IMG/VR virus record: IMGVR_UViG_3300034170_000100
Span: 1 to 64,000 of that record
Length of the DNA stretch: 64,000 bases
Source: a virus
Direction: 5' to 3' (one strand)
The notes under the pieces were generated by a model. That model was not told the origin of the DNA and made no database searches. It saw nothing but the letters and a program-made list of their open reading frames with translations. Positions 3,832 to 46,890 of this stretch are shown in pieces. Every line of letters begins with the position of its first letter. Positions within the stretch are counted from its first letter, which is position 1. The translations under genes were made by a program, and so were the position numbers.

Positions 3832-4035
3832 TCATTCCAGTTCATTGTCAGGAGTCCACTCGATAGTTACGGTGAATTTGCCGGACCGGAAGCCAGGGAA
3901 TCCATTCATGTCAGGGATTTCATTCACCTTTGGGTTAAAGTCTGAATCCAGGGCCTCGTGAAGATCACGCGACATGTCTACGATAGATTCACCGTCATAT
4001 GCCTTACTGAATAGAGTTTTCATGGGTTTGTTCAC
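3832..4035 (-). CDS. hypothetical protein (67 aa)
   Basis: ORF with GAGG RBS. Confidence 0.6.
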   Translation of the reverse strand: MNKPMKTLFSKAYDGESIVDMSRDLHEALDSDFNPKVNEIPDMNGFPGFRSGKFTVTIEWTPDNELE

Positions 4036-4063
4036 CTCAGCCCTCTTCTAGGGCGTCTTCTCA

Positions 4064-30558: not shown

Positions 30559-33500
30559 ATGGCAAACGGCGATAACAACTTCGGTTTTGACGAATTGTTC
30601 CCTGCCGGCCTGCCTGCTGCAAAAGAAGGGGCGTTCAAGCCCCTTTTTGACCTTTCAGCGAAAGCTGAGTCGGTTGCGGCAGCTTCTGAAGAAAAGAAGC
30701 AGACTCTTATCGGGAAAATGGGTTATGACGCCGAAGATACCGTGGGCACCATCGCTAACTATGGTGCTCGCTTTGCGTCCGGTCTAAGTCGCCAGGTTCT
30801 TGGCAACTTGGCTACCCTGCCTCTCGATGTGATTTCTGGCCTGGCCCAAGGGTCCGTTCCTGAAGAACAAGTGCAAGCGTTCAACCGCATGCAAACCAAT
30901 CAAGCAAGTGACGCGGATATGGCTCTGTTGAACCAGACTGCACCACTTGATGACGGTATCCCGCAGACTTACCTTGAGCGCCTGCAAGGCACCCAGGGCA
31001 TTCAAAAAGTTGCGCAGAATGTCGGTGATTTCTTCGACATCTCTAGCATTGTGGACACCACCCGCTCCGAGCGACTGAGCCGCGATATTCGTGAAGCTGC
31101 TGGCGATGGTACTGCGCAGCTGCGCGGCGCCAAAGAAGCCTTCAACGAAGGCCAGTACCTGGAAGCTGCTGGTGAAGGTATCAAGGGTCTCGGCAATACT
31201 GTTGGCCCTGCTTTGCTTGCTGGTTTGCAGTCTCCTGTCGCTGCCGGTGAATACGTCGCAGAGAACATCCCTCAGATCGTTGCTGCTGCTTACAACCCAT
31301 CCATTCTGGTTGGTACCAACGCCGGCTACGGTTATGACACGTACCGTGAAGGTATCCGTGACTACGCCAAGAAGAACGATGGTCAACTTCCAAATGCCGA
31401 CGAGCGTGCGACCATGGGTCTGTTCGCTGCATCGGCTGCTGGTGCTGAAGTAGTTGGCGATGTTGGGCTGCTCAAAGGTATCCGCGCTGCGGGCACCGGC
31501 TCTGGCAACAAGGCAATGAGCGCTGCTATGGGCATTGGTGGGGCCGCTGCACGCGAAGGCGTGACTGAGGGCTACCAGACCTATGCTGAGAACCGTGCTC
31601 AACTGAAAGACACCACGTTGGAAGATATCGTCGAAGGAGCCACCATTGGTGCGCTGGTTGGCGGTAACTTTCAACTGGCTGCTGAAATTGGTGGGGGACC
31701 GAAAGGTGATGCTGCACCTGCCAGGAAAAACGCTGTAGAAAACGCATTTACTTCCGCTGTGGAATCCGGTGATGTTTCATCCCTGACCGACAGCACTTCT
31801 CCTGCATATAGCCCGGTGCGCGCTGTTGAAGCCCTGCATCAGATGAATCTGCAAGATGGTGCCAAGGCCGAGGAAAACCTCGCTCAAGTCGACCGTATTC
31901 AGCAAGACGTGACAGCAGACCTGTCTTCGATCCAAGCCCGTATGGAATCCACTACGCCTGAGCGTGTGGCCCAGATCGGTGCGCTTGTTCAACAAATGGA
32001 AGTCGCAGGTTCCGACCAAGCCGACATTGCTGAAATGCGCCAGATCCACGAAGCTGTATCGTCGTACACGCCTGCCCAACGTAAGGCTGATGAAACTCGT
32101 GCTGCTCAACTGGAAAGCCAGCTGAGTGAGATTCACACTGCTGCCGAGCGCATGCGCGTAGACGCCAGCCCTGAGCAGGCTGATGTTCAAGCGCTTGCAA
32201 CCGATGCACAGACAGGTGATCAACAAGCGGTTGACCGTTTGCTGACCCTGACCATGACCAATCCTGAAGCCGTCGACACCTCGGTCGCTGAGTCTCTTGC
32301 ACAGAGCGAAGCCTTGACCGAGCCGCAACGTAACGCTATGCGCCTCTTCACAGAAGCACAGGTGGCCGCTAATGCCTTGAAGGGCATGCGTGGTGTTAGT
32401 TCGGAAATTGCCACTGGTGGCGATGGTTTCAAGGGTATCTCGCAATATCGCAATGCAATCCGTATGGCCCTGGCCAATGGCAATGAAAGCGCCGCCCGCT
32501 CGCAAGTCGATGGCGTTCGTGCTTTTGCTGCTAGTCGTGTATCGAAACTGGAAGCTATCACCGCTGCTTATGAGCAAGTGAAGGGCACAGACAACTCGAT
32601 CAACATCGTGCGGAATGAGCAAGGCGAATGGGGTCCGACTTCCTTGAAGGGCACAGCTCTCAAGAAAGCCAAAGGTCTGGTAGTTGATGCCCGTTCCTTC
32701 AACCTACGCGACGGTGTAGCTACTGAAGCGGACGTGTTAGCAAAAACTGCTGATGCATTCGAAGCTATGGTAAATGCTGCTCCATCTCCTGTATCGCAAC
32801 CGGTTGTGCAACCGACTGCGGATCAGGGTGAAGTTGCCGCTGCAACCCCTAAAGCTGATGCAAACGCCCCAGTTGACGCAGCACCGGTAGCTCCGGTCGC
32901 TGAACAGACTGCTGCGCCTGCACCTGCTGAAGAAGTTGTGGCAAAGCCGGAAGATGCCCCGAGCGTGACCGAGAAGGCTCCTGCAAATGCAGGCCAGCTC
33001 ACCACAATCGGCGAGCGAACCGGTGAAGCGGTAACCGCGGACAACTACCGTTCTGTCAATCTGGTTTCCGAGCTGTTCGACCAAAAGGTCGGCTCTGACA
33101 CCGATGCAAGCGTTCGCCCGCTGGTAGCTGTCAAAGACTTCGCTTCGGCCATTAAAGCCGGTGAAGTAACCGTGCAAGACTTCCTTACCCAGGAAGGTCC
33201 ACTGCCGGCCCCACAAGTCACGGCACTCAATGCATTTTTCAACTTTGCTCAATATTCTGAGCAGGCAATCCGCAACCAGTTCAAGGTCACTGCTACTCGT
33301 GCCAAACGCCCGGACTTCTTCTATCGGGACATGGCGCAGTTCATGCAGAACGCGGACGGCCAAATTGACGAGAACTTGGCGACTGCCGTGTCTTACGGCA
33401 TGTTCTCGTGGGCAAACGAAAACGCAACTCAACTGCGTAACAGTCCTGAGTCGATCAACACTATTCTGATGCGCGACCTGGACGATGAAGTCTCCAATGC

Positions 33501-36500
33501 TGCGTATGCGGCGCTATCGGCTATCGGTACACGAGAGTCGGTCGTCGCTTCGCAGCTTGGTGGCCGCATCCTGCAAGCCCTGGGCCTCCAGGTAAATCAG
33601 AACGGTACTCGTGCTGAGCTGAGTAAACTGGAATCGTCCGTAGGCGAGCGAGCCATTGCTGCCATGGTCAAGTTGGGTTTGGTAGAACGTACCCAACTCG
33701 CGGACCAAAAACTGCAAGTGCTGATGGGCAAAACTGAATTTGATCCTAAACTGACCCACAACTTCGTTGTTGTGAAGTCGGTGACCGATGCTGAAGGCAA
33801 ACTGCAACCGGCACCGGTTGTGAAGCGCATTCGTGAGCGTTCGGTGGGTTCCCAGTCGGTTGTGTCCAAACTGTTTGCAGTAGAGGCTGCTGGTGTAGAG
33901 CCGAGCTACAAGCCGATCCCCTTCACCCAAGAATTCGCTAAACGTACTAGGCAAGCTGTGCCTAAGACCCTGGCCAAGATTTTGGACAAGGAAGGTGCAA
34001 AAGCTCACGTTGTTCGCCAGAACATGTGGCACGTTTGGGGCAAACTGAGCAAGCAGGCTCTCTATGAAATGGGCGGCGTGGTCTCGACCACCGATGCACC
34101 AACTCACGTTGAGAACCTGGCTTCACGCCAGGCGAAGAATGATGGCCTGATCCAACAAGTGGACAACTTCGACGCATTCGTTAACGCGATGACCGCCGAT
34201 AGCTCGACTGAGGGTCTGGACCAATCGTTGTACTTCGGCCGCTCCGTTTGGAAACCTCAACGTGTTGGTTTGACTGCAAACGTGATCAACCCGCAGACTT
34301 CGAAGATCCACCGTCACATGCTGGCCATGTCCGGTTGGAATGCTACCGTCAACCTCGACAACAAAGCCGAGATGGACAACTTCAAGCTCCGTGTGTTGGA
34401 AGCGTTCGGCAAGAAGACCGAAGCAACCACTACCGCCAAAGTGTTGGCCGGCTACGATGCTGTCGTGTCCAACCCTGCAATTCAGGCTGGTATCGACGCG
34501 CTGGCTGAAGTCCTGCGCGACAATGGCACCGTGAATGAAGCCGCTATCGTCGACGCTGTAAAAGCGGCCGGCGAGAAGTTCCATTCCTTCGATGCGCTGG
34601 TTGCCTTGGCTGAGCAACGTATTGCCGAGCAAGATGGCAAGCCTGCGTTCGAAACCGCGATGATGGGTGAAGTGGACGGTGTAACCAACGGCCCTATGCT
34701 GTCCCTGCTGATGCTGGGTGCCAAAGGCTTTGAAACTATGAACCAAGGTGGTTTCTTTGAGCTGGGTAGCCAGTTCACACAGTTCAACGACTACAAGGCC
34801 CAGGGCAACCTCGACCTGTACGAGTCGAACATCGCTCAGGCACTGAACCGCCTGCAAGGTCGCCAGCAAGGTCAGCTCGACGCTATGTCGGTCATCACTG
34901 GCCAACTGCAAACTGCCGAAGGCAACGTGACCTCTAAAGGCCGTAACATTATCAAGAAGCCGCTGACCGCCCTGATGTTCGGGTCCAACCCGACTACCGC
35001 GGTACAAGGCATGGCCGACGGCTTCATTGAAGCGATCTACAGCCGTATCGAAGATGCAGCTGCTGCCCGTGACAATGATGCAATCGCCCCCTTGTTTGGT
35101 GCTGTGAATACCCTGACTCGCTCGCCGAAGTTCGCTTTGGATGTGAAGATGGGCTATGAGCGTGCCCTGGAAACCAAGTTGACTACTCAACAGCAAGACG
35201 CGCTGAAACGCTCGTTCTATGAGTTGCTGGGTGAGCCGACTGAGAAAGCTCTGGCCGACAACTACGCTACCTTCATCGCTCGCCGGAACGTGATCAACCA
35301 GACAGCACAACTGTCGTTTGACCTGTTCAACGCTGTGCGTGATGGCGTGACTGAGTTCGTTGAGTCGACCAGCCAGGATGTGCCACGTAACAATGCTGGC
35401 GCCGCCATTCGCACGCTGACTAAAGAGCAACAGGCACAAGTAGATGCACTGATGGGCGACATGGCCCCGATCCTGCAAACTGCTATGTCTCAGGCATCGA
35501 AGCAACGTGAAGCTGGTATGTACATGGCCAAGTCGAAGCGTTCGCTCGATTCGTCTGCTGCCTACGAGCAAGAAGTCGCTTTCGGTGAAATGGTTAACAC
35601 CATTGCCCCGGACGGCTCCATGCAGGGTATCGGCTCGACTCGCCTGTCGTCTTCGCGCACTCAGGACATCGACCCAGGTGTAATGCCTTTCATTACCTCC
35701 ATTCACTCCAGCGACTCGGCTATTGCCTCGACTGTGTACGGAATGATGGAAGCACTGAACGTTCACGACGCCTTGGGCGTAGACCTGAACAATGTGGCCA
35801 AGGTTGGCCAGGAGCTGAACAAAGCGACGTTCAACACCATGCTGGAATACTCGTCCGCGACCGCAATGAGCAACATGCTCGATGAAGTCCTGGCCGGTGT
35901 ATCCAAAGTGATGCAGAACCCTGAGCTGGCTGCACGCATTCAGCCTAAGCTGCGCGAGAAGATGGTTGCCCGGGCTGAGAAGAAGCGTGGCTCTATTGCT
36001 GAGCAACTGACCGCTATTCGTGAGACTGCGACCCAGGCGGACACCGATAAGCTGAATATGCTGAGCAACATGCAGGCAATCGGCCAATACGCTACCGACG
36101 GCGGTTCTTACATCGTGACCGACGCTGACCGTGCAAAAGCACAGGCCAAGTTGGACGAAGTGGGTTCCACCTTCAATGCTGCGGCTGAATCTGTGGCTGA
36201 GCAACTGGACGCCGAAGCAAGCATCGTCTCAGCTGTGTATGTTGCAGGCAAGCAAGCTGAGCTGTCCAACACGTCGGTAACGACTCTGGCGCCGGCCACT
36301 TCTCTCAATACTCTGGCTTCGCTTGAGCAGACCCCGGCTGTTGTGCAGGTAATTGATTCCATGGTTTCGGGTAACCGAACTCTGGCCGATGCCCTGCAAG
36401 TTCTGCCTGAGCATCAAGCTGCCGAAGTAGTTGAAGCGGTAAATGGTGCAAGTGAAGCGAAATTGTCTGTATGGGGCCGCTTGGGCACCCCTGTCGTACA

Positions 36501-39500
36501 GTCCGACGTGAACTTGGTGCAACTGCTGGACACCACGGGCATGACTGCTCACAACCTCGTTGATTCGCTGGTTGAGTACGTACAGAACCCGTTCCAGAAG
36601 ACTGTGCTCAAGATGGCCAAGAAAGGCATCTCTGCTCGTATGCCGGTGACCTACATCACTGCCGAGACCGGACCAGAAGGCGCATTTGGTGAAGGCGTAG
36701 ACAAATCCCGCGGTTGGTACGCACAGCGTAACGACCAAGCCGGGTTGTTCATTAAATCCCCGGACTTCGTTGAATCGGGTATCACCCCTGAGCTGCTGAC
36801 CCATGAACTGGTGCATGCTGCTCTGGCAAACCTGATCGACGCAAACCAAGGTAAGAACACCCTGGCCGGCCGCGCTGTAGCGGATCTGGAAGTGCTGCGT
36901 ACCCAAGCTGAAGACTTCCTCGCCAACAATGGCGCCCTGTCTGCTAAGTACCGCAACGCCACGTCGAACGTGCATGAGCTGGTCTCCTGGGGCCTGTCCA
37001 ACCAAGACTTCCAACGTGAAGTGCTGGGCCAGGTATCGGTGCCACAGAAAGACCGATCGATCCTCGACGGCCTGAAGGGTTTCATCAAGTCGCTGACTGA
37101 AATGCTGTTTGGTGCCAACACTCCGTCGGCAAACAACGGTATGGCCAACTTGATCGCCAACTCTGCTGTTCTGTTCCGTGAAGCGGCCCAGGCGCAAGAG
37201 AAGCGTGCGACTGCAACCCACAAGTACGAAGACGCCATCGACCACATCAACGCTATGACTGCTGAGCAGGTGTTTGACGCTCTGGCTACCGTAGGCAACC
37301 ACAAGACTGATGTGGTCCATGCTGAGTACCTGCGTGACCTGTTGGCGCAGACTGTTAACCCGGTCTACGGCCCATACGGCGCATTCAAAGAGGCAGCATC
37401 GGCAAACCGTGCGCTGACCCCGCTGGATGTGTTCCTGAAAGCGGTGAGCACCGGCCAAACTCCGTTCAGCTCCCAGGCAACAGCCGGCCAGTTCATCCTG
37501 TCCCAGCAAGAAGCATTTGTGCTGGAATCGGTAGAAGCGACCATTTCCCACGCCATGGAAACGAAAGAAACTCTGTTCGTTCGCCAGGGTCTGGAAAACC
37601 TGTTCAAGGAGGCACGTTCGAAGCTGAACCCGGACGGGCGCAACTTGCACGCTGGCGATTGGGCAACCGCAAGCCAGAATGAGAAGGATGTCGCTAAAGC
37701 GAAGTGGGACTTCCTGTTCCGCCCACAAGTGAGCGCAACTGGTCGCAACAATTACTTGGCACGCTTTGCTGCCCTGGGCCTGGCCTCGGCCGAAGTCCGT
37801 AATGCACTTGGTTTCTCGACCAACAACTTCGAGACCCCGTTGAAGGGTCTGCCGATCACCAGCAAGCTGACTGAGTTGTTCCGTCGGGCAATGACAGTCT
37901 TTGCCCGCCTGGCAACCAAAGTCATCCCTGGCACCTCGGGCAACGTCGCACTGAGCACTCTGGTAGAGCAACTGGTGGACATCGAGGCCAAGCGTAAAGC
38001 ACGCATGGACCAGGAGAAGGTGAACCACTTTGACCAGCTCGAAACTGCGCTGGCCGGTGTGGGTGACTCCATCCTGGAAAAAGCTGATGCACTAGGCCGC
38101 GCCGGGTTCATTCGCAAGTCGAAGATCCCGTTTGTCGCCGGTCTCGGCGCTGTGGTATCCACCGCTGCCGGTAACCGCCTGGATGCGGTACTGAATGCCA
38201 TCACAATGATGCGCGATCAGTCTCAAAAGAGCCGGCACGGTGTGGTGATGGGCATGCTGACCGAATGGCGCGGTGTGTACGATTCTCGCCGTTTGGCTGC
38301 TGAATTGTTCAAAGGTGCCAAGGCCAACGAGCAACAGCGCAAATCGGTTATCGAGACCACTGCTGCATCGGTAAACGAAGCATTTGCAAACCAGGGCCAA
38401 GATTTGACCCAGGTGCAACGTGATGCGCTGACTCGTGTGTTTCTGCGGACCAATGCCCAGGCAATCGCCGCTGCTCGTGGTGTCGACGGACTGCGCGACC
38501 TCATGGAAGACCCTGCTGCAATGGCGGCATACCGTTCAGACTTGGAAGCACAGGTAACTGCGCTGACTCCGAACTATCTGTACATGATCAGCCAGGCCAA
38601 AGACTTGGCGCACCACAAGGTGGTGGGCGGCTCGACTTCGGCCAACCTGATGCTGTCGACCGGCAACATTGCGGCCATGTTCGGCACCAAGAAGAAAGTT
38701 GCTGCCAATGCCGCGGTTATCACGCTGCTTGAGCAACTAGTGGGCGTATACGGCCTGGACTACAGCGGTGATGTCGATCTGCGCAATGCTCGTGAAGTTC
38801 TGCGCACTGAGATGAATCGTACCGACGGCAACGGCGTGGACTACATGCTGAAGCTGCACACTGGTCTCCAGGCCAAAGCAACTGCTGACCTGTTCAAAGG
38901 CACCGAAGCGCTGCAACAGACCGGCTATGTGGCGGAGATCCACGACAACAAGATCGAAGTCTTGCTGGTAGCCAAGAGCGACGTAGCTGCACACGAGCGC
39001 GCCGGCTACATCGTGGGCACTGCCCTGCAAATGGACCCGAATGTGAAAGGTCTGAAAACCACAGGCCGTGTACTGATGACTCGCCGTAGCGCCGGTCAAA
39101 CTGCGCTGCTTACTGGTGCCATGTCTTTCACCGGCAACAATGCCAAGGGTTCTAGCCCGGTCACCGAAGCTGTCAACATGATGGCCGGCAACCAGACCTC
39201 TGCCGCTGTACGTCAGCAGATTGCACAGCAGAAGGCCCAGGCAGTGGCTGATTTGTTCCACCGCCCATTGTCTTACGACCCACGCAAGGCACAAGCTGGG
39301 CACATGGTCCCCACCCTGGCGCCTGACGGCCGAATAGCTGACTACCGTCACATGATGACCGAACAAAACCGCGATGTCCTTTTGGACCGCGATAATTCGA
39401 TGGATCAAGTGCTGGGAGTCATGGCTGGTCAAATTGCTGACAAAGTGTCCACTGTTCAACAGAACACTGACGTTGTTCGCTCGATGTATGATCAATACCG

Positions 39501-40695
39501 CGCTGACTACACTTCGCGCCCTTCTTCGTACATTCGTGTGTCCGCGGACAGCAAAGACAAAGGTTTGGCCGAGACTTATCGCCTGTTGCCAGAAAGCACC
39601 AAGCAAGAGATCCGCAAGGTATGGAAAGACGACGCAATGTATGTGCCGGCTGACCAACTCGATCTGATCTTTGGCTATCGCAAGTTCAGCCTGACCAATT
39701 CGTTTGACGAATTGCCAGGTGACCGCAACATGTTTGAAAAGGTGCTGGTTGCTGCTACTTCTGCGATCTACGGCGAGAAAGCTGCGCTTCGCGTAGGTCA
39801 AGCTGAAGACATCATGCAAACCCTCGTTAAAGAGATGAAAGACATTCTTGTTGTTAAGAACATCTTCACTCTGGCGGGCAACATCACGTCGAACATGACA
39901 TTACTGGCTTGGGAAGGTGTTCCATTGCGGAAGGCCGCGGCTTCTCACGCTATTGCTATCAAAGGTGCAATCGATTTCCGTAAGGATTCGAAACGCCTGC
40001 TGCAATTGCAACAAGCTGTAGAAATTGGGTACTTCGCTGATAACACTGCTGCTGGGGCAGAGATTCTGGAAATTCAGGATCGTTTGGCACGTAACCCGAT
40101 CAAACCATTGGTGGATGCAGGCTTGATGCCTACTATCGTGGAAGACGTTGAAGTTGATGACGACCGCTACACCTACAAAGCTCACTTGGCCCGTAAGGTG
40201 GAGAAGTTCACTGATAAGGTTCCAGCTTGGATGCGTACTGTCGGTAAACAGGTCTACATGACCCATGACACCGCCACGTATAAATTCTTGAGCCAAACAA
40301 CTCAGTTGTCTGACTTGGTGGCACGTTATGCGCTATTTGAGCACTTGACTACCCGCACGAAAGATCCTCTGAGTGTTGCTGATGCTTTGCACCAAGCTGA
40401 GGACAGTTTCGTAAACTACGACCTGCCTTCGCACCGCACACTGCAATATCTGAACGATATGGGCATTGTGATGTTTACCAAGTACTACTTGCGTATTCAG
40501 AAGGTGATCATGCGTCTTGTGCGTGAGAAACCTGTACGTGGTCTGATGTTGGCAGCAGTTGGTCATATGTGGGCCGGTCTGGATTCCATCATGGATTCCA
40601 GCTGGCTCAACAAGATTGGCAACAATCCGCTGCAAGATGGAGCACTTGGTTACCTCGGCTCGTTGAAAGAGCTGCCAGCAATCAAGTTCCTGTAA
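30559..40695 (+). CDS. virion-encapsidated RNA polymerase (N4 gp50-like)
   Basis: 3378 aa, no Cys seen, motif A EVDGVTNGP, motif B RNIIKKPLTALMFGS, motif C NVHDA. Confidence 0.96.
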   Translation: MANGDNNFGFDELFPAGLPAAKEGAFKPLFDLSAKAESVAAASEEKKQTLIGKMGYDAEDTVGTIANYGARFASGLSRQVLGNLATLPLDVISGLAQGSVPEEQVQAFNRMQTNQASDADMALLNQTAPLDDGIPQTYLERLQGTQGIQKVAQNVGDFFDISSIVDTTRSERLSRDIREAAGDGTAQLRGAKEAFNEGQYLEAAGEGIKGLGNTVGPALLAGLQSPVAAGEYVAENIPQIVAAAYNPSILVGTNAGYGYDTYREGIRDYAKKNDGQLPNADERATMGLFAASAAGAEVVGDVGLLKGIRAAGTGSGNKAMSAAMGIGGAAAREGVTEGYQTYAENRAQLKDTTLEDIVEGATIGALVGGNFQLAAEIGGGPKGDAAPARKNAVENAFTSAVESGDVSSLTDSTSPAYSPVRAVEALHQMNLQDGAKAEENLAQVDRIQQDVTADLSSIQARMESTTPERVAQIGALVQQMEVAGSDQADIAEMRQIHEAVSSYTPAQRKADETRAAQLESQLSEIHTAAERMRVDASPEQADVQALATDAQTGDQQAVDRLLTLTMTNPEAVDTSVAESLAQSEALTEPQRNAMRLFTEAQVAANALKGMRGVSSEIATGGDGFKGISQYRNAIRMALANGNESAARSQVDGVRAFAASRVSKLEAITAAYEQVKGTDNSINIVRNEQGEWGPTSLKGTALKKAKGLVVDARSFNLRDGVATEADVLAKTADAFEAMVNAAPSPVSQPVVQPTADQGEVAAATPKADANAPVDAAPVAPVAEQTAAPAPAEEVVAKPEDAPSVTEKAPANAGQLTTIGERTGEAVTADNYRSVNLVSELFDQKVGSDTDASVRPLVAVKDFASAIKAGEVTVQDFLTQEGPLPAPQVTALNAFFNFAQYSEQAIRNQFKVTATRAKRPDFFYRDMAQFMQNADGQIDENLATAVSYGMFSWANENATQLRNSPESINTILMRDLDDEVSNAAYAALSAIGTRESVVASQLGGRILQALGLQVNQNGTRAELSKLESSVGERAIAAMVKLGLVERTQLADQKLQVLMGKTEFDPKLTHNFVVVKSVTDAEGKLQPAPVVKRIRERSVGSQSVVSKLFAVEAAGVEPSYKPIPFTQEFAKRTRQAVPKTLAKILDKEGAKAHVVRQNMWHVWGKLSKQALYEMGGVVSTTDAPTHVENLASRQAKNDGLIQQVDNFDAFVNAMTADSSTEGLDQSLYFGRSVWKPQRVGLTANVINPQTSKIHRHMLAMSGWNATVNLDNKAEMDNFKLRVLEAFGKKTEATTTAKVLAGYDAVVSNPAIQAGIDALAEVLRDNGTVNEAAIVDAVKAAGEKFHSFDALVALAEQRIAEQDGKPAFETAMMGEVDGVTNGPMLSLLMLGAKGFETMNQGGFFELGSQFTQFNDYKAQGNLDLYESNIAQALNRLQGRQQGQLDAMSVITGQLQTAEGNVTSKGRNIIKKPLTALMFGSNPTTAVQGMADGFIEAIYSRIEDAAAARDNDAIAPLFGAVNTLTRSPKFALDVKMGYERALETKLTTQQQDALKRSFYELLGEPTEKALADNYATFIARRNVINQTAQLSFDLFNAVRDGVTEFVESTSQDVPRNNAGAAIRTLTKEQQAQVDALMGDMAPILQTAMSQASKQREAGMYMAKSKRSLDSSAAYEQEVAFGEMVNTIAPDGSMQGIGSTRLSSSRTQDIDPGVMPFITSIHSSDSAIASTVYGMMEALNVHDALGVDLNNVAKVGQELNKATFNTMLEYSSATAMSNMLDEVLAGVSKVMQNPELAARIQPKLREKMVARAEKKRGSIAEQLTAIRETATQADTDKLNMLSNMQAIGQYATDGGSYIVTDADRAKAQAKLDEVGSTFNAAAESVAEQLDAEASIVSAVYVAGKQAELSNTSVTTLAPATSLNTLASLEQTPAVVQVIDSMVSGNRTLADALQVLPEHQAAEVVEAVNGASEAKLSVWGRLGTPVVQSDVNLVQLLDTTGMTAHNLVDSLVEYVQNPFQKTVLKMAKKGISARMPVTYITAETGPEGAFGEGVDKSRGWYAQRNDQAGLFIKSPDFVESGITPELLTHELVHAALANLIDANQGKNTLAGRAVADLEVLRTQAEDFLANNGALSAKYRNATSNVHELVSWGLSNQDFQREVLGQVSVPQKDRSILDGLKGFIKSLTEMLFGANTPSANNGMANLIANSAVLFREAAQAQEKRATATHKYEDAIDHINAMTAEQVFDALATVGNHKTDVVHAEYLRDLLAQTVNPVYGPYGAFKEAASANRALTPLDVFLKAVSTGQTPFSSQATAGQFILSQQEAFVLESVEATISHAMETKETLFVRQGLENLFKEARSKLNPDGRNLHAGDWATASQNEKDVAKAKWDFLFRPQVSATGRNNYLARFAALGLASAEVRNALGFSTNNFETPLKGLPITSKLTELFRRAMTVFARLATKVIPGTSGNVALSTLVEQLVDIEAKRKARMDQEKVNHFDQLETALAGVGDSILEKADALGRAGFIRKSKIPFVAGLGAVVSTAAGNRLDAVLNAITMMRDQSQKSRHGVVMGMLTEWRGVYDSRRLAAELFKGAKANEQQRKSVIETTAASVNEAFANQGQDLTQVQRDALTRVFLRTNAQAIAAARGVDGLRDLMEDPAAMAAYRSDLEAQVTALTPNYLYMISQAKDLAHHKVVGGSTSANLMLSTGNIAAMFGTKKKVAANAAVITLLEQLVGVYGLDYSGDVDLRNAREVLRTEMNRTDGNGVDYMLKLHTGLQAKATADLFKGTEALQQTGYVAEIHDNKIEVLLVAKSDVAAHERAGYIVGTALQMDPNVKGLKTTGRVLMTRRSAGQTALLTGAMSFTGNNAKGSSPVTEAVNMMAGNQTSAAVRQQIAQQKAQAVADLFHRPLSYDPRKAQAGHMVPTLAPDGRIADYRHMMTEQNRDVLLDRDNSMDQVLGVMAGQIADKVSTVQQNTDVVRSMYDQYRADYTSRPSSYIRVSADSKDKGLAETYRLLPESTKQEIRKVWKDDAMYVPADQLDLIFGYRKFSLTNSFDELPGDRNMFEKVLVAATSAIYGEKAALRVGQAEDIMQTLVKEMKDILVVKNIFTLAGNITSNMTLLAWEGVPLRKAAASHAIAIKGAIDFRKDSKRLLQLQQAVEIGYFADNTAAGAEILEIQDRLARNPIKPLVDAGLMPTIVEDVEVDDDRYTYKAHLARKVEKFTDKVPAWMRTVGKQVYMTHDTATYKFLSQTTQLSDLVARYALFEHLTTRTKDPLSVADALHQAEDSFVNYDLPSHRTLQYLNDMGIVMFTKYYLRIQKVIMRLVREKPVRGLMLAAVGHMWAGLDSIMDSSWLNKIGNNPLQDGALGYLGSLKELPAIKFL

Positions 40696-42459: not shown

Positions 42460-42903
42460 TTAGGCACCCTTGCGGATTTCGAAGTGTTCTTCGCTCAGGC
42501 GGTAGCCCAGCTCGCGCGCGATCTCTTCGATCACTTTGCGTTCTTCCGGCTCGACTTCGCCGTCAGCCTTGGCGATTGCCAGGACGTTCAGCACCACGTC
42601 TTCGACGTGTTCGTCGTTGCCTTGGATGTCGCGGATTTCGCGCAGGATCTTGCTGCGGCCGACCAGGAAGTCACCTTCCAACAGATCGGTGAAACGACGA
42701 ATCGTCTTACCGATGTCGGCGCCGAAGTGCTTGAGGTTTTCATTACCGGCGATCAGCTTTTCGAGCTTGGTCAGCTCGTCTTTCTCGATGTCGCCATCAG
42801 CTGCGGAGACCAATAGACCGCCGCCGACGATTGCTTCCATCAGGTCGCGGTTTTCGACTTTCTTGGCACCGCGGAACAGCTTGCCAGCGAGTTTACTGAA
42901 CAT
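42460..42903 (-). CDS. TerB-family (tellurite resistance-like) protein
   Basis: duplicated AADGDIEKDE and AKADGEVEPEE motifs. Confidence 0.85.
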   Translation of the reverse strand: MFSKLAGKLFRGAKKVENRDLMEAIVGGGLLVSAADGDIEKDELTKLEKLIAGNENLKHFGADIGKTIRRFTDLLEGDFLVGRSKILREIRDIQGNDEHVEDVVLNVLAIAKADGEVEPEERKVIEEIARELGYRLSEEHFEIRKGA

Positions 42904-43363
42904 GATCATTTTCCTGGATTGGCAGGTCATTGCCTGGGGGCCGGGTTGACGCTGCGACAATTTTGGTACGCATGTCACGGCCAACGGCCGCGCCTAATGC
43001 CCACTCTTGATGATTGAAGGTGTCGTCTTCAGGGAAGGCGTTCACCAACTGGCCTGGGTCGGGCACCGTAAAGGTTTGCTCTAAACCAAGGTTGTAAGCG
43101 GCAGAGGTGACTGACGCTACTGGCGCCTGCGAAGTGCCTGTCAGCTCGAACTCGGTCATGTAGCCAACATAGGCCACGTTGATCAAGGTCGAGCCTTCAG
43201 GGATCTGTCGGCTGGCACGGGCACCATTCAAAATGGGGATCGTGACAGCACGCGACTTCGACCAGACAAATGCACTCAGAGGGACGTAAGCCCCCGGCTG
43301 AGGCACCGACCAGACTGCCAGGAACCAATGCCGCTTTTTATTGCGGTCATCGGCCTGGGTCAT
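42893..43363 (-). CDS. hypothetical protein
   Basis: ORF in middle-gene run. Confidence 0.7.
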   Translation of the reverse strand: MTQADDRNKKRHWFLAVWSVPQPGAYVPLSAFVWSKSRAVTIPILNGARASRQIPEGSTLINVAYVGYMTEFELTGTSQAPVASVTSAAYNLGLEQTFTVPDPGQLVNAFPEDDTFNHQEWALGAAVGRDMRTKIVAASTRPPGNDLPIQENDHVQ

Positions 43364-43365
43364 GA

Positions 43366-43701
43366 TCAGTCGAACAGGTTGTCGGCATCGGAACCGGCAA
43401 CATCGGCGCCAACTTCGGCAGCGGTTTCGACCTGGGCTTCGGTTTGAACTTCAGCCGGGGTTTCGACAACAGGCGCCAGAGCTTCAGTTACCGGGGCCAC
43501 GACGGTCGCTTTGGCAACAACAGGTGCTGCTTCGGCCGGGGCCTTCGGCTCGGTGTCCAGTTCGCACAGCAGTTCTTTCGAGCCGCGCTTGAAAGCGAAA
43601 TCGGCGGTGACTTTGGACGGATCGAACGCAGTCATGCCACGAGTGGCCAGGAATTCGCACAGAGCCAGGGTTACGTCAGCGTGGGAGAGAGTCAGTTTCA
43701 T
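43366..43701 (-). CDS. N4 gp47-like small acidic protein
   Basis: position after the resolvase, acidic low-complexity tail ending NLFD. Confidence 0.65.
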   Translation of the reverse strand: MKLTLSHADVTLALCEFLATRGMTAFDPSKVTADFAFKRGSKELLCELDTEPKAPAEAAPVVAKATVVAPVTEALAPVVETPAEVQTEAQVETAAEVGADVAGSDADNLFD

Positions 43702-44261
43702 TGTTTCGTTCCTCGGTAAAATTGGATGATTTGTTTGTAAATTTCGGTCTGGAGACCGGCATAGATGGCGCCCAATGCGTCAGCCATGTGTTCTGCATCG
43801 CACAATAGGATTTCTCCGTTGGATTTCCGTGGCCAGGGGGCCTCGGGGTGTTTCTTTATCGCCCACTCGATCATTTGCTTTTTGGTGGCCTTTCGGTCAC
43901 CTACAGCCGCAAGTTTGACTTCGTTGGGCGTTACTTCGACGAATTGAGAATTGGCGCGGAGACTGCCCAAAACCCCAATGCAGATACCAGAACATAGCGA
44001 GGCGCGGGCGCTTTGACTCCCAACGGGAATTTCGGCGAAGGTAAGGCTCGCTGCTGTGAAGGGAGCTACGCCCTCATATAACTGGTTTGCCGTGCGCAGA
44101 TCTTGTGAGTTCTGCCGTACCTGCTTTCCTTCGAGCGGTTCAGCCCGCACAACCCGGAGGGTTTTGATGGTCAGTTGCCCGGTGTCGGTGTCAATCGTTC
44201 CACCGGCTATGCCCCAGTTACGAGAACTTGGATCGTGTCCCGCTACACTGAGGCGAGCCAT
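43698..44261 (-). CDS. RuvC-like Holliday junction resolvase (N4 gp46-like)
   Basis: GHDPSSRNWG, AEIP, TPNEVK and EHMADA motifs. Confidence 0.85.
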   Translation of the reverse strand: MARLSVAGHDPSSRNWGIAGGTIDTDTGQLTIKTLRVVRAEPLEGKQVRQNSQDLRTANQLYEGVAPFTAASLTFAEIPVGSQSARASLCSGICIGVLGSLRANSQFVEVTPNEVKLAAVGDRKATKKQMIEWAIKKHPEAPWPRKSNGEILLCDAEHMADALGAIYAGLQTEIYKQIIQFYRGTKQ

Positions 44262-44812
44262 TACACGCCAGCGCGGCTAAGGCGGCGCTGGAGCACAGCA
44301 ACGTAGTCTTTCATCAGACCGTGTTGCGTGCGAAGGTCGGCGATTTCATCGTCCGAAAGTTCCAGAGCTTCCAGAGCACCTGCATCGACTTGAACAAGAA
44401 ACTCGCTCAGGCCCATCAGACGGGAAGCCACTTGGTACATTTCAGTCAGCACACGCTGCACATGATCAGGCAGCTCGCGCTGTTCCTGAGTCAGTGGGCG
44501 ATTGCCGCGATGGATGTCTTCGGCCAACAGGAAACCGGCGAACGGCCACAGTTGGTTCCGGGCATCTTCGTAGGCGAATTTCTTCGCCAACTCTTCGCTG
44601 TAGTTCTCGGCCGAGACCGCGCCCAGGTTTTTGCCCAGGACGGTGAAACCGTTGTGCAGGGTGATTTGGCACAGCATGCCCAGGCCGCCGATCTTGAGCA
44701 GAGACTGCTCTTTGATCATGGCGTCCAGAGCGGCAGGGGTGACCCGTGGCGCCTTGGTAAGGCCGAGGGCCTGGATCTGTGCTTCGGTTGCAGCTTCGTC
44801 TTTGTTAGACAT
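44261..44812 (-). CDS. Phage_gp49_66 (Acb4-type) plus crAss001_48/Y16Q (Sequestin-type) fusion, putative immune-signal sponge
   Basis: N-terminal APRVT..LHNGFTVLG..VSAENY..QLWPFAGFLL; C-terminal HVQRVLTE..LSEFL..LRTQHGLMKDYVAVLQRRL. Confidence 0.7.
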   Translation of the reverse strand: MSNKDEAATEAQIQALGLTKAPRVTPAALDAMIKEQSLLKIGGLGMLCQITLHNGFTVLGKNLGAVSAENYSEELAKKFAYEDARNQLWPFAGFLLAEDIHRGNRPLTQEQRELPDHVQRVLTEMYQVASRLMGLSEFLVQVDAGALEALELSDDEIADLRTQHGLMKDYVAVLQRRLSRAGV

Positions 44813-44856
44813 GTACAGCTCCTGAGAAGGGCCGGTTACCCGACCCATGGGGGTGT

Positions 44857-45645
44857 TCAGTCGAATAGGGAGTCGACAGCTTCCCCACCGGCAGTGGTAG
44901 GCGTGCCAGCAGGGCCACCGGTACCAGCAGGTGCGACCAGCTTGTCAGCTTTGACTTTGTTCACGACTTTGCCGGTGTTGGCTTCAACCCATTTCGGGTA
45001 GAAGTCGGCGGCGACAGGTTGGCCTTTCTGCTTGGCTTCACGCAGCTCGGCGATGGTCGCATTGTTGTCGGCGAAGAAGATCTTGCCAATCTGGTTTTCG
45101 AACTTGGTGTCCGGTACGCCAGGCTCGCCAGCTTTGTGAACTGGCAGGTATTCGTTGCCGACCTTGATGGTCTTGTTCACTTCGTGCTTTTCCAGGCCCA
45201 AGATGAACTTTTTGCCGATCAGCTCGACCGCCATTGGCACTTCGGTTGGAACGTCTTTCTTCTGCTCGTGGTCGCGCAGTTTCAGGATTTTCGTTTCGAA
45301 AGCCAGAGCGTTCAGCTCTTTCTTCGCGCAGAACATCGAGATCGCGTTGACGTTGTTGAAACCAGGCAGGTAGGACTTCTTACCGTCGCGCTCGTAGTAC
45401 GGCTTGTTGCCTTTGGCATCGCCGGAGGTTACCCACTCGGTGAACTTGAACTTACGACCGTCGTCGCCTTGGACTTCGAAAGACATACTACCGGCGCCGC
45501 CTTTGGACTTGCCAGCGTATGCAGCCAGGATGGTTACAGGGTAAGCACCACCGTCCCAGACGAAACCACCACCGAGACGGTCACTATCCGTTTCGATCTG
45601 TTCGTTCGTGGTATTAACGGTGTTGGCAAAAGGGTTCAGACTCAT
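44857..45645 (-). CDS. single-stranded DNA-binding protein (N4 gp45-like)
   Basis: DRLGGG, SKGGA, YLPGF motifs, acidic SLFD C-terminus, synteny. Confidence 0.88.
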   Translation of the reverse strand: MSLNPFANTVNTTNEQIETDSDRLGGGFVWDGGAYPVTILAAYAGKSKGGAGSMSFEVQGDDGRKFKFTEWVTSGDAKGNKPYYERDGKKSYLPGFNNVNAISMFCAKKELNALAFETKILKLRDHEQKKDVPTEVPMAVELIGKKFILGLEKHEVNKTIKVGNEYLPVHKAGEPGVPDTKFENQIGKIFFADNNATIAELREAKQKGQPVAADFYPKWVEANTGKVVNKVKADKLVAPAGTGGPAGTPTTAGGEAVDSLFD

Positions 45646-45716: not shown

Positions 45717-46184
45717 TTATGTGGTTTTTGCTTGACGAAACAGAGCATTGACGTACCCCACAGATATTCCGTACTCGGACGCTAGTAAGTTGGTCGGATT
45801 GCCTGCCTTTTTGCGTTCGACAATATCAGACACCTGTTTTGCGTTCAATTTTAAACGCTGGGTGCGGCGTCCTGATTGACGTCCAACGATAGCTATCATG
45901 TTCTCCCTGTGGGGGATATAACAGCACGCTTCAGGGGAATACTTTTTGTTACCCGACACTTTTGTGTCTTTGTCCAAATCATACTCAGGGCGCCACCCAT
46001 TAGTGATAGACCAGTCGTAGAACGCTTTGAAACTATCACGCCACTCTCGACATACCGTCACGCCTTTAGCACCGTACCATTGATACGGGACCGCAGACGG
46101 TACATAACAACGTGCAAGCATGTCTTGCCATTTACGGTAAAGCGGGTGGCGTGACAACCCGTGATTTTCACGGGGTTTACGCAT
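45717..46184 (-). CDS. HNH-related homing endonuclease with C-terminal HTH
   Basis: HGLS.HPLY..W..M..RC..YGAKGVTVCREW..F..DLDKD..GN..YSPE.C pattern. Confidence 0.8.
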   Translation of the reverse strand: MRKPRENHGLSRHPLYRKWQDMLARCYVPSAVPYQWYGAKGVTVCREWRDSFKAFYDWSITNGWRPEYDLDKDTKVSGNKKYSPEACCYIPHRENMIAIVGRQSGRRTQRLKLNAKQVSDIVERKKAGNPTNLLASEYGISVGYVNALFRQAKTT

Positions 46185-46890
46185 AATACGTATCCATCCT
46201 ATCAAGCACTTGTTGGATACAGTTGTCGATGAAGACTTCGTTGTCTGCCCACATCATCATTGGGCCACGGATGCGCGTATTGAGCGTGTCCTTCGTGACT
46301 TCCGTCTGATAGACGTGTTTGAACCCGACGTTACGTTCTTTGTCGGTAATTTTCAGCAAATCGCTGCCTTCAACCAAGTCGTCGATCTTCACCTTCTGGC
46401 ACATGAGCACCAGGGAGAAGTAGGCTTCGATGCCTTGGTTCTTGAGCGAACCGGCGACGGGGATTGCCGTTTCCATGACCATGGCGGTTTCGTTGTACAC
46501 GTCGAGCGTGTGCGCGAGGAAGATCACCTTCTTCGTGGACTTCGCAACGTCAACCTGCATGGTTGCCTTGAAGAACTCAGCAAAGTTGCCCCAGGCTGCG
46601 CGCCCGTCAGTTGCCGGCTTAACGAACTGGCTGATGTACATATCAAGCCAGAAAGTCAAGGTATCGACGACGATGACCTTGATGTGGTCCTGCTTCTCAG
46701 CCCAGGCGAAAGCATCGCGGACTTGAAGCGGGTTGGTCACCGTGCGTTGCACGAACTTGGCAGGGAACGGCAGGCGTTTACCGGCTTCGCAGTTCAGATA
46801 GAGAACTGACTCAGGATCACGCAGATTCCGCAGAGAAGCTGATTTGCCACTGCCGGATTTGCCACAAATAAGTGCCAAATGTTCATTCAT
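46177..46890 (-). CDS. Sak4-like AAA ATPase (N4 gp44-like)
   Basis: Walker A GKSGSGKS, Walker B IVVDT, GSLKNQGIEAYFS. Confidence 0.88.
   Translation of the reverse strand: MNEHLALICGKSGSGKSASLRNLRDPESVLYLNCEAGKRLPFPAKFVQRTVTNPLQVRDAFAWAEKQDHIKVIVVDTLTFWLDMYISQFVKPATDGRAAWGNFAEFFKATMQVDVAKSTKKVIFLAHTLDVYNETAMVMETAIPVAGSLKNQGIEAYFSLVLMCQKVKIDDLVEGSDLLKITDKERNVGFKHVYQTEVTKDTLNTRIRGPMMMWADNEVFIDNCIQQVLDRMDTYYA

Follow-up and report, generated by a model that had tools for sequence, protein, structure and literature searches.

We propose that the gene at positions 44261–44812 (minus strand) of the viral DNA analyzed here codes for a nucleotide-signal sponge with two domains that belongs to the Acb4-Sequestin fusions already published, a reading to which we assign a probability of about 0.82. 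The window, by which we mean the whole stretch of DNA that was analyzed, comprises bases 1–64000 of the 74,794-bp IMG/VR virus record IMGVR_UViG_3300034170_000100, a record with direct terminal repeats and a completeness rated at 100%. The phage is an N4-like podovirus (Schitoviridae) encoding a virion RNA polymerase ORF of 3378 residues, and among named phages it is closest to Pseudomonas phage phCDa (Shizishanvirus, host P. fluorescens), to which it has ~86% DNA identity in parts of the replication module. By relation to phCDa, we judge its host to be a fluorescens-group Pseudomonas.

The first-pass annotation of this DNA had described two recognizable domains in one 183-aa ORF between an SSB gene and a resolvase gene, and had proposed comparing them with HMMs. 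Exactly this ORF was present in the ORF list and its translation, and both domains, PF13876 in the N-terminal part and PF21825 in the C-terminal part, were matched above the Pfam gathering score, a two-domain make-up that is far beyond chance. In addition, a match to phrog_3934 (PHROGs) spanned the full protein with an E value of 5.4e-36, and 70 full-length homologs were identified, most of them 179–187 aa long, with the phCDa ortholog being 76% identical. Two further Pfam matches, to MBTPS1_3rd and YjeJ, were under the cut-off and were disregarded. When the complete 74,794-bp record was searched in six frames, neither domain was found a second time, the only matches being those in the fusion gene, and no match to a Tad2-family gene was found in the genome of this phage.

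Domain composition of the fusion protein

The N-terminal domain (residues 24–98, positions 44519–44743, minus strand) matched PF13876 (Phage_gp49_66), for which the cut-off is 27, with 57 bits over profile positions 1–80 of 82 (E 2.9e-15), and the six-frame genome search placed the match at 44519–44743 with 58.9 bits. In a structural model of the fusion protein, produced by AlphaFold2 with 51 homologs (mean pLDDT 87.4), this domain consists of three beta strands (residues 33–41, 45–52 and 57–63) followed by two helices (residues 73–86 and 88–102). Foldseek comparison with the PDB returned the chains of 9E4W first (probability 1.00, rmsd 1.1–1.5 Å over 65–68 columns), and this entry, the crystal structure of SPO1 Acb4 with 3'3'-cGAMP, was the sole significant PDB match by sequence (E 1.3e-3). 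PF13876 is the Pfam family founded by SPO1 Acb4, a tetrameric 3'3'-cGAMP sponge (10.1101/2024.12.30.630793), and the initial claim that the N-terminal pattern is that of the family including this CBASS sponge therefore holds.

The window protein shares with SPO1 Acb4 the fold of residues ~28–95, membership of PF13876 and the stacking residue F48, which corresponds to F56. SPO1 Acb4, however, is a single-domain protein of 96 aa with ~22% identity to the window protein, and the two differ in the ligand pocket. The cGAMP contacts in SPO1 Acb4 are K36, F48, E49, V56, Y57, F62, N63, I66, T70 and K81, among which K36 and E49 read guanine, Y57, T70 and K81 contact phosphate, and N63 touches the ligand through its backbone only (10.1101/2024.12.30.630793). 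In the alignment with 9E4W, F48, F62 and I66 are retained or have conservative replacements (F56, Y71 and L75), whereas K36, E49, Y57, T70 and K81 are altered to L44, T57, V66, F79 and P90, respectively, so that non-conservative changes affect five of the ten contact positions. Because several of these contacts are changed, the ligand of the N-terminal domain is uncertain, and we infer its preference for cyclic dinucleotides. The tested homolog gp59 of Pseudomonas phage Ab09 also lacks E49 and T70, yet is a weak cGAMP binder (10.64898/2026.06.04.730250).

The C-terminal domain (residues 115–180, positions 44273–44470, minus strand) matched PF21825 (crAss001_48) over the entire profile (positions 1–61 of 61) with 49.2 bits and an E value of 4.9e-13, the cut-off being 24.8, and was found with 51 bits at 44273–44470 in the six-frame genome search. 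It was modeled as a helical hairpin formed by residues 116–143 and 154–180 with a pLDDT of 87–96. The C-terminal part of the protein also matched phrog_774, the PHROG annotated on T4 Y16Q, with an E value of 4e-10, and T4 Y16Q itself belongs to PF21825 (10.1101/2025.07.12.664507); the initial description of a crAss001_48/T4 Y16Q-like hairpin was thus borne out. Searches of the PDB with this domain returned nothing by sequence or profile, and Foldseek gave only non-specific coiled-coil matches.

PF21825 was picked in a previous study because no other family is so frequently found in fusions with Acb4 (91 Pfam instances) and with Tad2, and was named Sequestin after 10 of 13 members tested were found to block type I Thoeris (10.1101/2025.07.12.664507). 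The protein sequesters 3'cADPR (1''-3' gcADPR), the signal of type I Thoeris, and forms an antiparallel dimer with two 3'cADPR pockets; in SequestinA, the substitution E12A, Q47A or R61A abolishes the anti-Thoeris activity (10.1101/2025.07.12.664507). That Y16Q-like proteins are sponges of Thoeris signals, as the first-pass annotation had stated, is therefore published. The window domain has in common with SequestinA, SequestinB and T4 Y16Q a helical hairpin of ~60 residues and a pocket of R, E, Q and R. Its R120, E124, Q163 and R177 are the counterparts of SequestinA R8, E12, Q47 and R61, which means that all four of the pocket residues named in the literature are kept, and the same four columns were invariant in a MAFFT alignment of the C-terminal domains of the window protein, its phCDa ortholog, gp59 of phage Ab09 and T4 Y16Q. 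Sequestins are free-standing proteins of 60–80 aa, whereas that of the window is a C-terminal domain with a longer inter-helix loop and 28% identity to T4 Y16Q.

Comparison with Ab09 gp59 and proposed mechanism

The architecture, locus and function of an Acb4-Sequestin fusion have already been published, and these data support our interpretation of the window protein, which is not new. The published protein, gp59 of the N4-like Pseudomonas phage vB_PaeP_C2-10_Ab09 (Ab09), is encoded in the order SSB (gp57), small gp58, gp59 and RuvC-like gene (Fedorova et al., 10.64898/2026.06.04.730250). It has a high affinity for 1''-3' gcADPR and a low one for 3'3'-cGAMP, and also binds 2'3'-cAA; it strongly blocks type I Thoeris and partly blocks type II-A CBASS, and Panoptes is triggered (10.64898/2026.06.04.730250). 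The protein is tetrameric at full length, as is the Acb4 domain, and the Sequestin domain, for which a crystal structure is mentioned, forms dimers (10.64898/2026.06.04.730250). Ab09 without gp59 replicated normally and the single deletion gave no sensitization, and evasion is also conferred by bes1 (RuvC-like) and bes2, the pair of genes that follows gp59 (10.64898/2026.06.04.730250).

Ab09 gp59 resembles the window protein in having both Pfam domains in the same order and in being encoded at an SSB/Bes1 locus. The two proteins are nevertheless far apart in sequence: the BLASTP alignment between them covered only the N-terminal domain (35% identity), and the kinship of the C-terminal domain, which aligned with gp59 residues 84–147 at 18% identity, was shown through Pfam and the MAFFT alignment with T4 Y16Q. 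The two phages belong to different groups, the window phage being Shizishanvirus-like and Ab09 a Litunavirus. Based on the shared domains, pocket residues and gene order, we consider the window gene to be the ortholog, in another genus, of the published dual sponge.

At 183 aa the window protein exceeds Ab09 gp59 (147 aa) in length by 36 residues, and it differs from that protein by an added N-terminal extension of 23 residues, a longer segment between the domains and five more residues in the loop of the hairpin. The N-terminal extension (residues 1–23, positions 44744–44812, minus strand) has a predicted helix at residues 4–15, and E6, E10, L18, P22 and R23 are near-invariant in alignments of the clade; the first residue of Ab09 gp59 corresponds to residue 23 of the window protein. 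The inter-domain segment (residues 99–114, positions 44471–44518, minus strand) has the consensus ..D.HRGN.PLT..Q..L, with D99, R102, G103, N104, P106, L107, T108, Q111 and L114 near-invariant among the 51 homologs; it appears in the model as a short connection between the domains and is absent or shortened in Ab09 gp59. Such conservation is unusual for a mere linker, and the segment may prolong the final helix of the Acb4 domain and contribute to the wall of its pocket.

Other fusions follow the same principle of two sponges in one chain, by which two signaling systems are blocked. Pseudomonas phage YH6 is described as having a PF21825-Acb4 fusion, and Pasteurella phage Pm86 has an Acb4-Tad2 fusion, with Tad2 in the place of Sequestin (10.1101/2025.07.12.664507). 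Homologs from phCDa, Littlefix and Ab09 are listed in a table of 1,331 Acb4 homologs (10.1101/2024.12.30.630793). The corresponding list of Sequestin homologs has 3,244 entries, and phCDa, Littlefix, YH6 and Ab09 are not mentioned in the text supplements of that paper (10.1101/2025.07.12.664507).

The oligomeric state, ligands and anti-defense activity that we propose for the window protein are those expected from its homologs. The Acb4-type domain would assemble as a tetramer in which pockets between the protomers sequester CBASS cyclic dinucleotides, the likeliest being adenine-containing (3'3'-cGAMP, cUA or isomers of c-di-AMP). The Sequestin-type hairpin would pair in antiparallel fashion with a second copy, creating two pockets built from R120, E124 and R177 of one chain together with Q163 of its partner; these would hold 1''-3' gcADPR (3'cADPR), with which type I Thoeris signals. 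With these molecules held, the host effectors would stay inactive. Weighing against this reading are the distance from the tested Ab09 gp59, the partial retention of the SPO1 contacts and, for Ab09 gp59 itself, the weak binding of cGAMP and the lack of sensitization upon its deletion. The first-pass annotation had proposed one protein acting against both CBASS and Thoeris, and this proposal gains support from the dual activity of the syntenic Ab09 gp59, the CBASS half of it resting on a presumed ligand of the N-terminal domain.

An alternative, which we consider unlikely, is that immune-signal binding is confined to the Sequestin half, with gcADPR as the ligand, and that type II-A CBASS is not really countered. 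The Acb4-type half would then be a tetramerization scaffold joining Sequestin dimers, or would hold a ligand other than 3'3'-cGAMP, such as 2'3'- or 3'3'-c-di-AMP, cUA or some further signal. The changes at five of the ten SPO1 contact positions, which include the guanine-reading K36 and E49, are in keeping with this alternative, as is the replacement of the phosphate-contacting K81 by P90, a proline that is invariant in the clade whereas Ab09 gp59 has lysine at this position. The weak binding of cGAMP by Ab09 gp59, its partial effect on CBASS and its binding of 2'3'-cAA (10.64898/2026.06.04.730250) point the same way, and Acb4 homologs from phages of Gram-negative hosts bind 3'3'-c-di-AMP (3'3'-cAA) too (10.1101/2024.12.30.630793). 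However, all eight of the Acb4 homologs tested bound 3'3'-cGAMP despite their divergence (10.1101/2024.12.30.630793). Moreover, purifying conservation of the N-terminal domain is strong across the clade, the pocket-region residues included, which would exceed what a scaffold needs.

Gene order, neighboring genes and reading frame

On the minus strand the gene order is primase-like gene (718 aa), AAA_24 ATPase gene, 162-aa ORF, SSB gene, fusion gene, RuvC-like gene, Bes2-like gene, 156-aa gene and TerB gene, and the plus-strand 3378-aa polymerase ORF (30559–40695) converges on this block. The fusion/Bes1/Bes2 region was described as an anti-signaling hotspot conserved across N4-like phages (10.64898/2026.06.04.730250), and the fusion gene of the window, which has the primase gene on one side and that of the virion RNA polymerase on the other and adjoins the SSB gene and the Bes1 ortholog, matches the location of that hotspot. 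The order SSB, fusion, RuvC-like and Bes2-like recurs in ~20 related viral contigs, as part of a longer order that begins with the primase and AAA_24 (Sak4-like) ATPase genes and continues to the 156-aa and TerB genes.

The upstream neighbor, which forms the boundary of the hotspot, encodes an N4 gp45-like SSB (44857–45645, minus strand) at the same position as Ab09 gp57; it is syntenic in ~20 loci. Ab09 has gp58 between the SSB and fusion genes, whereas in the window there is no gp58-like gene at that point. The downstream neighbor (43698–44261, minus strand) encodes a RuvC-like protein that is the ortholog of Ab09 gp60 (Bes1), with 42% identity and an E value of 1e-49, and its match to PF02075 (RuvC) was weak and under the cut-off. 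The next gene (43366–43701, minus strand) encodes a protein of 111 aa, which we assigned to the Bes2 position based on its location, its N-terminal resemblance to Ab09 gp61 and a shared tail; by BLASTP alone, its match to Ab09 Bes2 (gp61) was not significant (E 0.97).

Beyond it lies a gene for a conserved protein of 156 aa (42893–43363, minus strand), located between the Bes2-like and TerB genes and syntenic in most related contigs. Downstream of this gene, and in the same hotspot as the fusion gene, is a gene for a TerB-domain protein of 174 aa (42460–42984, minus strand; PF05099, E 1.8e-12), also syntenic in most related contigs. At the other side of the SSB gene, between it and the gene for the AAA_24 (Sak4-like) ATPase, is the 162-aa ORF (45717–46205, minus strand), which has no Pfam match. 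Among the relatives examined, an ORF of comparable size (190–200 aa) occupies this slot only in two of the related contigs, which we denote by L numbers (L008 and L017), the likeness being one of size and position.

The position of the fusion gene among SSB, Sak4-like ATPase, primase and RuvC-like genes, that is, in the replication module, would also suit an accessory protein that serves replication or recombination in N4-like phages and takes no part in immune evasion, and the Acb4 fold resembles that of dsRNA-binding domains (10.1101/2024.12.30.630793). We regard this as very improbable, since the tested members of both domain families are sponges, the Sequestin pocket residues are kept, and Ab09 deleted for gp59 replicates normally (10.64898/2026.06.04.730250). 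The fusion is also found elsewhere in other N4-like phages. In Achromobacter phage JWAlpha (L006, 2531–2998) the matching gene adjoins the small terminase gene and not the SSB gene, and in Alcaligenes phage QDWS595 (L007, 1940–3055) it also adjoins the small terminase gene and directly follows a DUF2829 (Tad2-family) gene. Both genes match the window fusion over 95–99% of its length. Their location by the small terminase and a Tad2-family gene indicates that the fusion travels with anti-defense genes and not with replication genes, and suggests a second anti-signaling island in other N4-like genera.

The reading frame of the fusion gene runs from an ATG at 44812 to a TAA stop at 44261–44263. 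Its start is preceded by 6 nt by a ribosome-binding site, AGGAG (44819–44823, minus strand), read from the sequence; the end of the upstream SSB gene is 44 nt away, and the stop codon shares one base with the ATG of the RuvC-like gene (TAATG). Under the sponge reading, the gene would be expressed alongside the replication genes, and its translation would be coupled to that of the Bes1-like RuvC gene. A longer reading of 195 aa from an in-frame ATG at 44848 was rejected because relatives (L012–L020) open the frame only at the 183-aa start, which is where the alignment of the homologs begins. That the ORF is decayed or a chance frame that is not expressed has a negligible likelihood, since no support for it was found and it is contradicted by the good ribosome-binding site, the overlap with the next gene, the 70 homologs of the same length, the confident predicted fold and the two HMM matches over the cut-off.

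Variation at the locus and its implications

Comparison of the window with L008, a viral contig of 73.6 kb whose SSB and RuvC-like protein are 99% and 98% identical to those of the window and whose flanking genes have 95–100% DNA identity to it, revealed a sharply delimited divergence. Between window positions 44275–44452 and L008 positions 3860–4040, which correspond to the Sequestin half only, the DNA identity is 52–70%, whereas the Acb4 half and both flanks have 92–100% identity, apart from a value of 88% in the 60-bp bin that immediately precedes the breakpoint. Among the relatives in the clade, the second helix of the hairpin occurs as three alleles. The first, canonical allele, which is that of the window, has the pocket glutamine in register; the second has the glutamine one position earlier and a glycine in place of R176; and the third is without the pocket glutamine and has leucine or lysine at position 120. 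The second and third alleles score under the PF21825 cut-off.

Judged from these alignments, the Sequestin half appears to behave as an exchangeable cassette, in what looks like half-domain exchange under an arms race, and the canonical allele of the window should be gcADPR-competent. The alleles of the C-terminal domain, together with the altered Acb4 pocket (proline for the K81 equivalent) and the invariant inter-domain segment, led us to consider that in the Shizishanvirus-like clade the sponge has been re-targeted by module exchange to signals other than gcADPR and cGAMP, its specificity having been switched by a half-domain swap. We hold this as a tentative and rather doubtful possibility.

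The neighboring genes vary as well. In the Bes2-like gene, the middle part (43385–43494) is a local divergence hole with 45–47% identity and gaps among otherwise near-identical phages, and around it the N-terminal domain and the C-terminal tip are kept. The encoded protein has a disordered low-complexity stretch of Ala, Pro and Glu that is followed by a tip shared with the SSB of the same phage. We compared these tips in the window, L001, L004, L005 and L008–L027, and they were found to co-vary (LFD with LFD, LFG with LFG and LFS with LFS) across ~25 N4-like phages. In the window, phCDa and most relatives the SSB ends in DSLFD and the Bes2-position protein in DNLFD. The corresponding pairs are DSLFG and ENLFG in L015 and L020, DDLFG and DNLFG in L022 and L023, DNLFG and ENLFG in L024, SLFS and SLFS in Ab09, Littlefix, 98PfluR60PP and L025, and SLFS and SLFA in L027. 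The coliphage N4 SSB cannot activate the host RNA polymerase at late promoters, which it does via the beta' subunit, without its C-terminal residues (PMC4496689). Based on the shared tip and this role of the N4 SSB C-terminus, we speculate that Bes2 may mimic the SSB tail or share its partner.

The window gene by itself answers no open question. It extends the published dual sponge from Litunaviruses of P. aeruginosa to N4-like phages of fluorescens-group Pseudomonas, and it confirms the SSB/RuvC hotspot as a dependable place for anti-signaling genes. For the mapping of ligand specificity, the divergent Acb4 pocket and the series of alleles that the Sequestin half shows in nature provide ready material.
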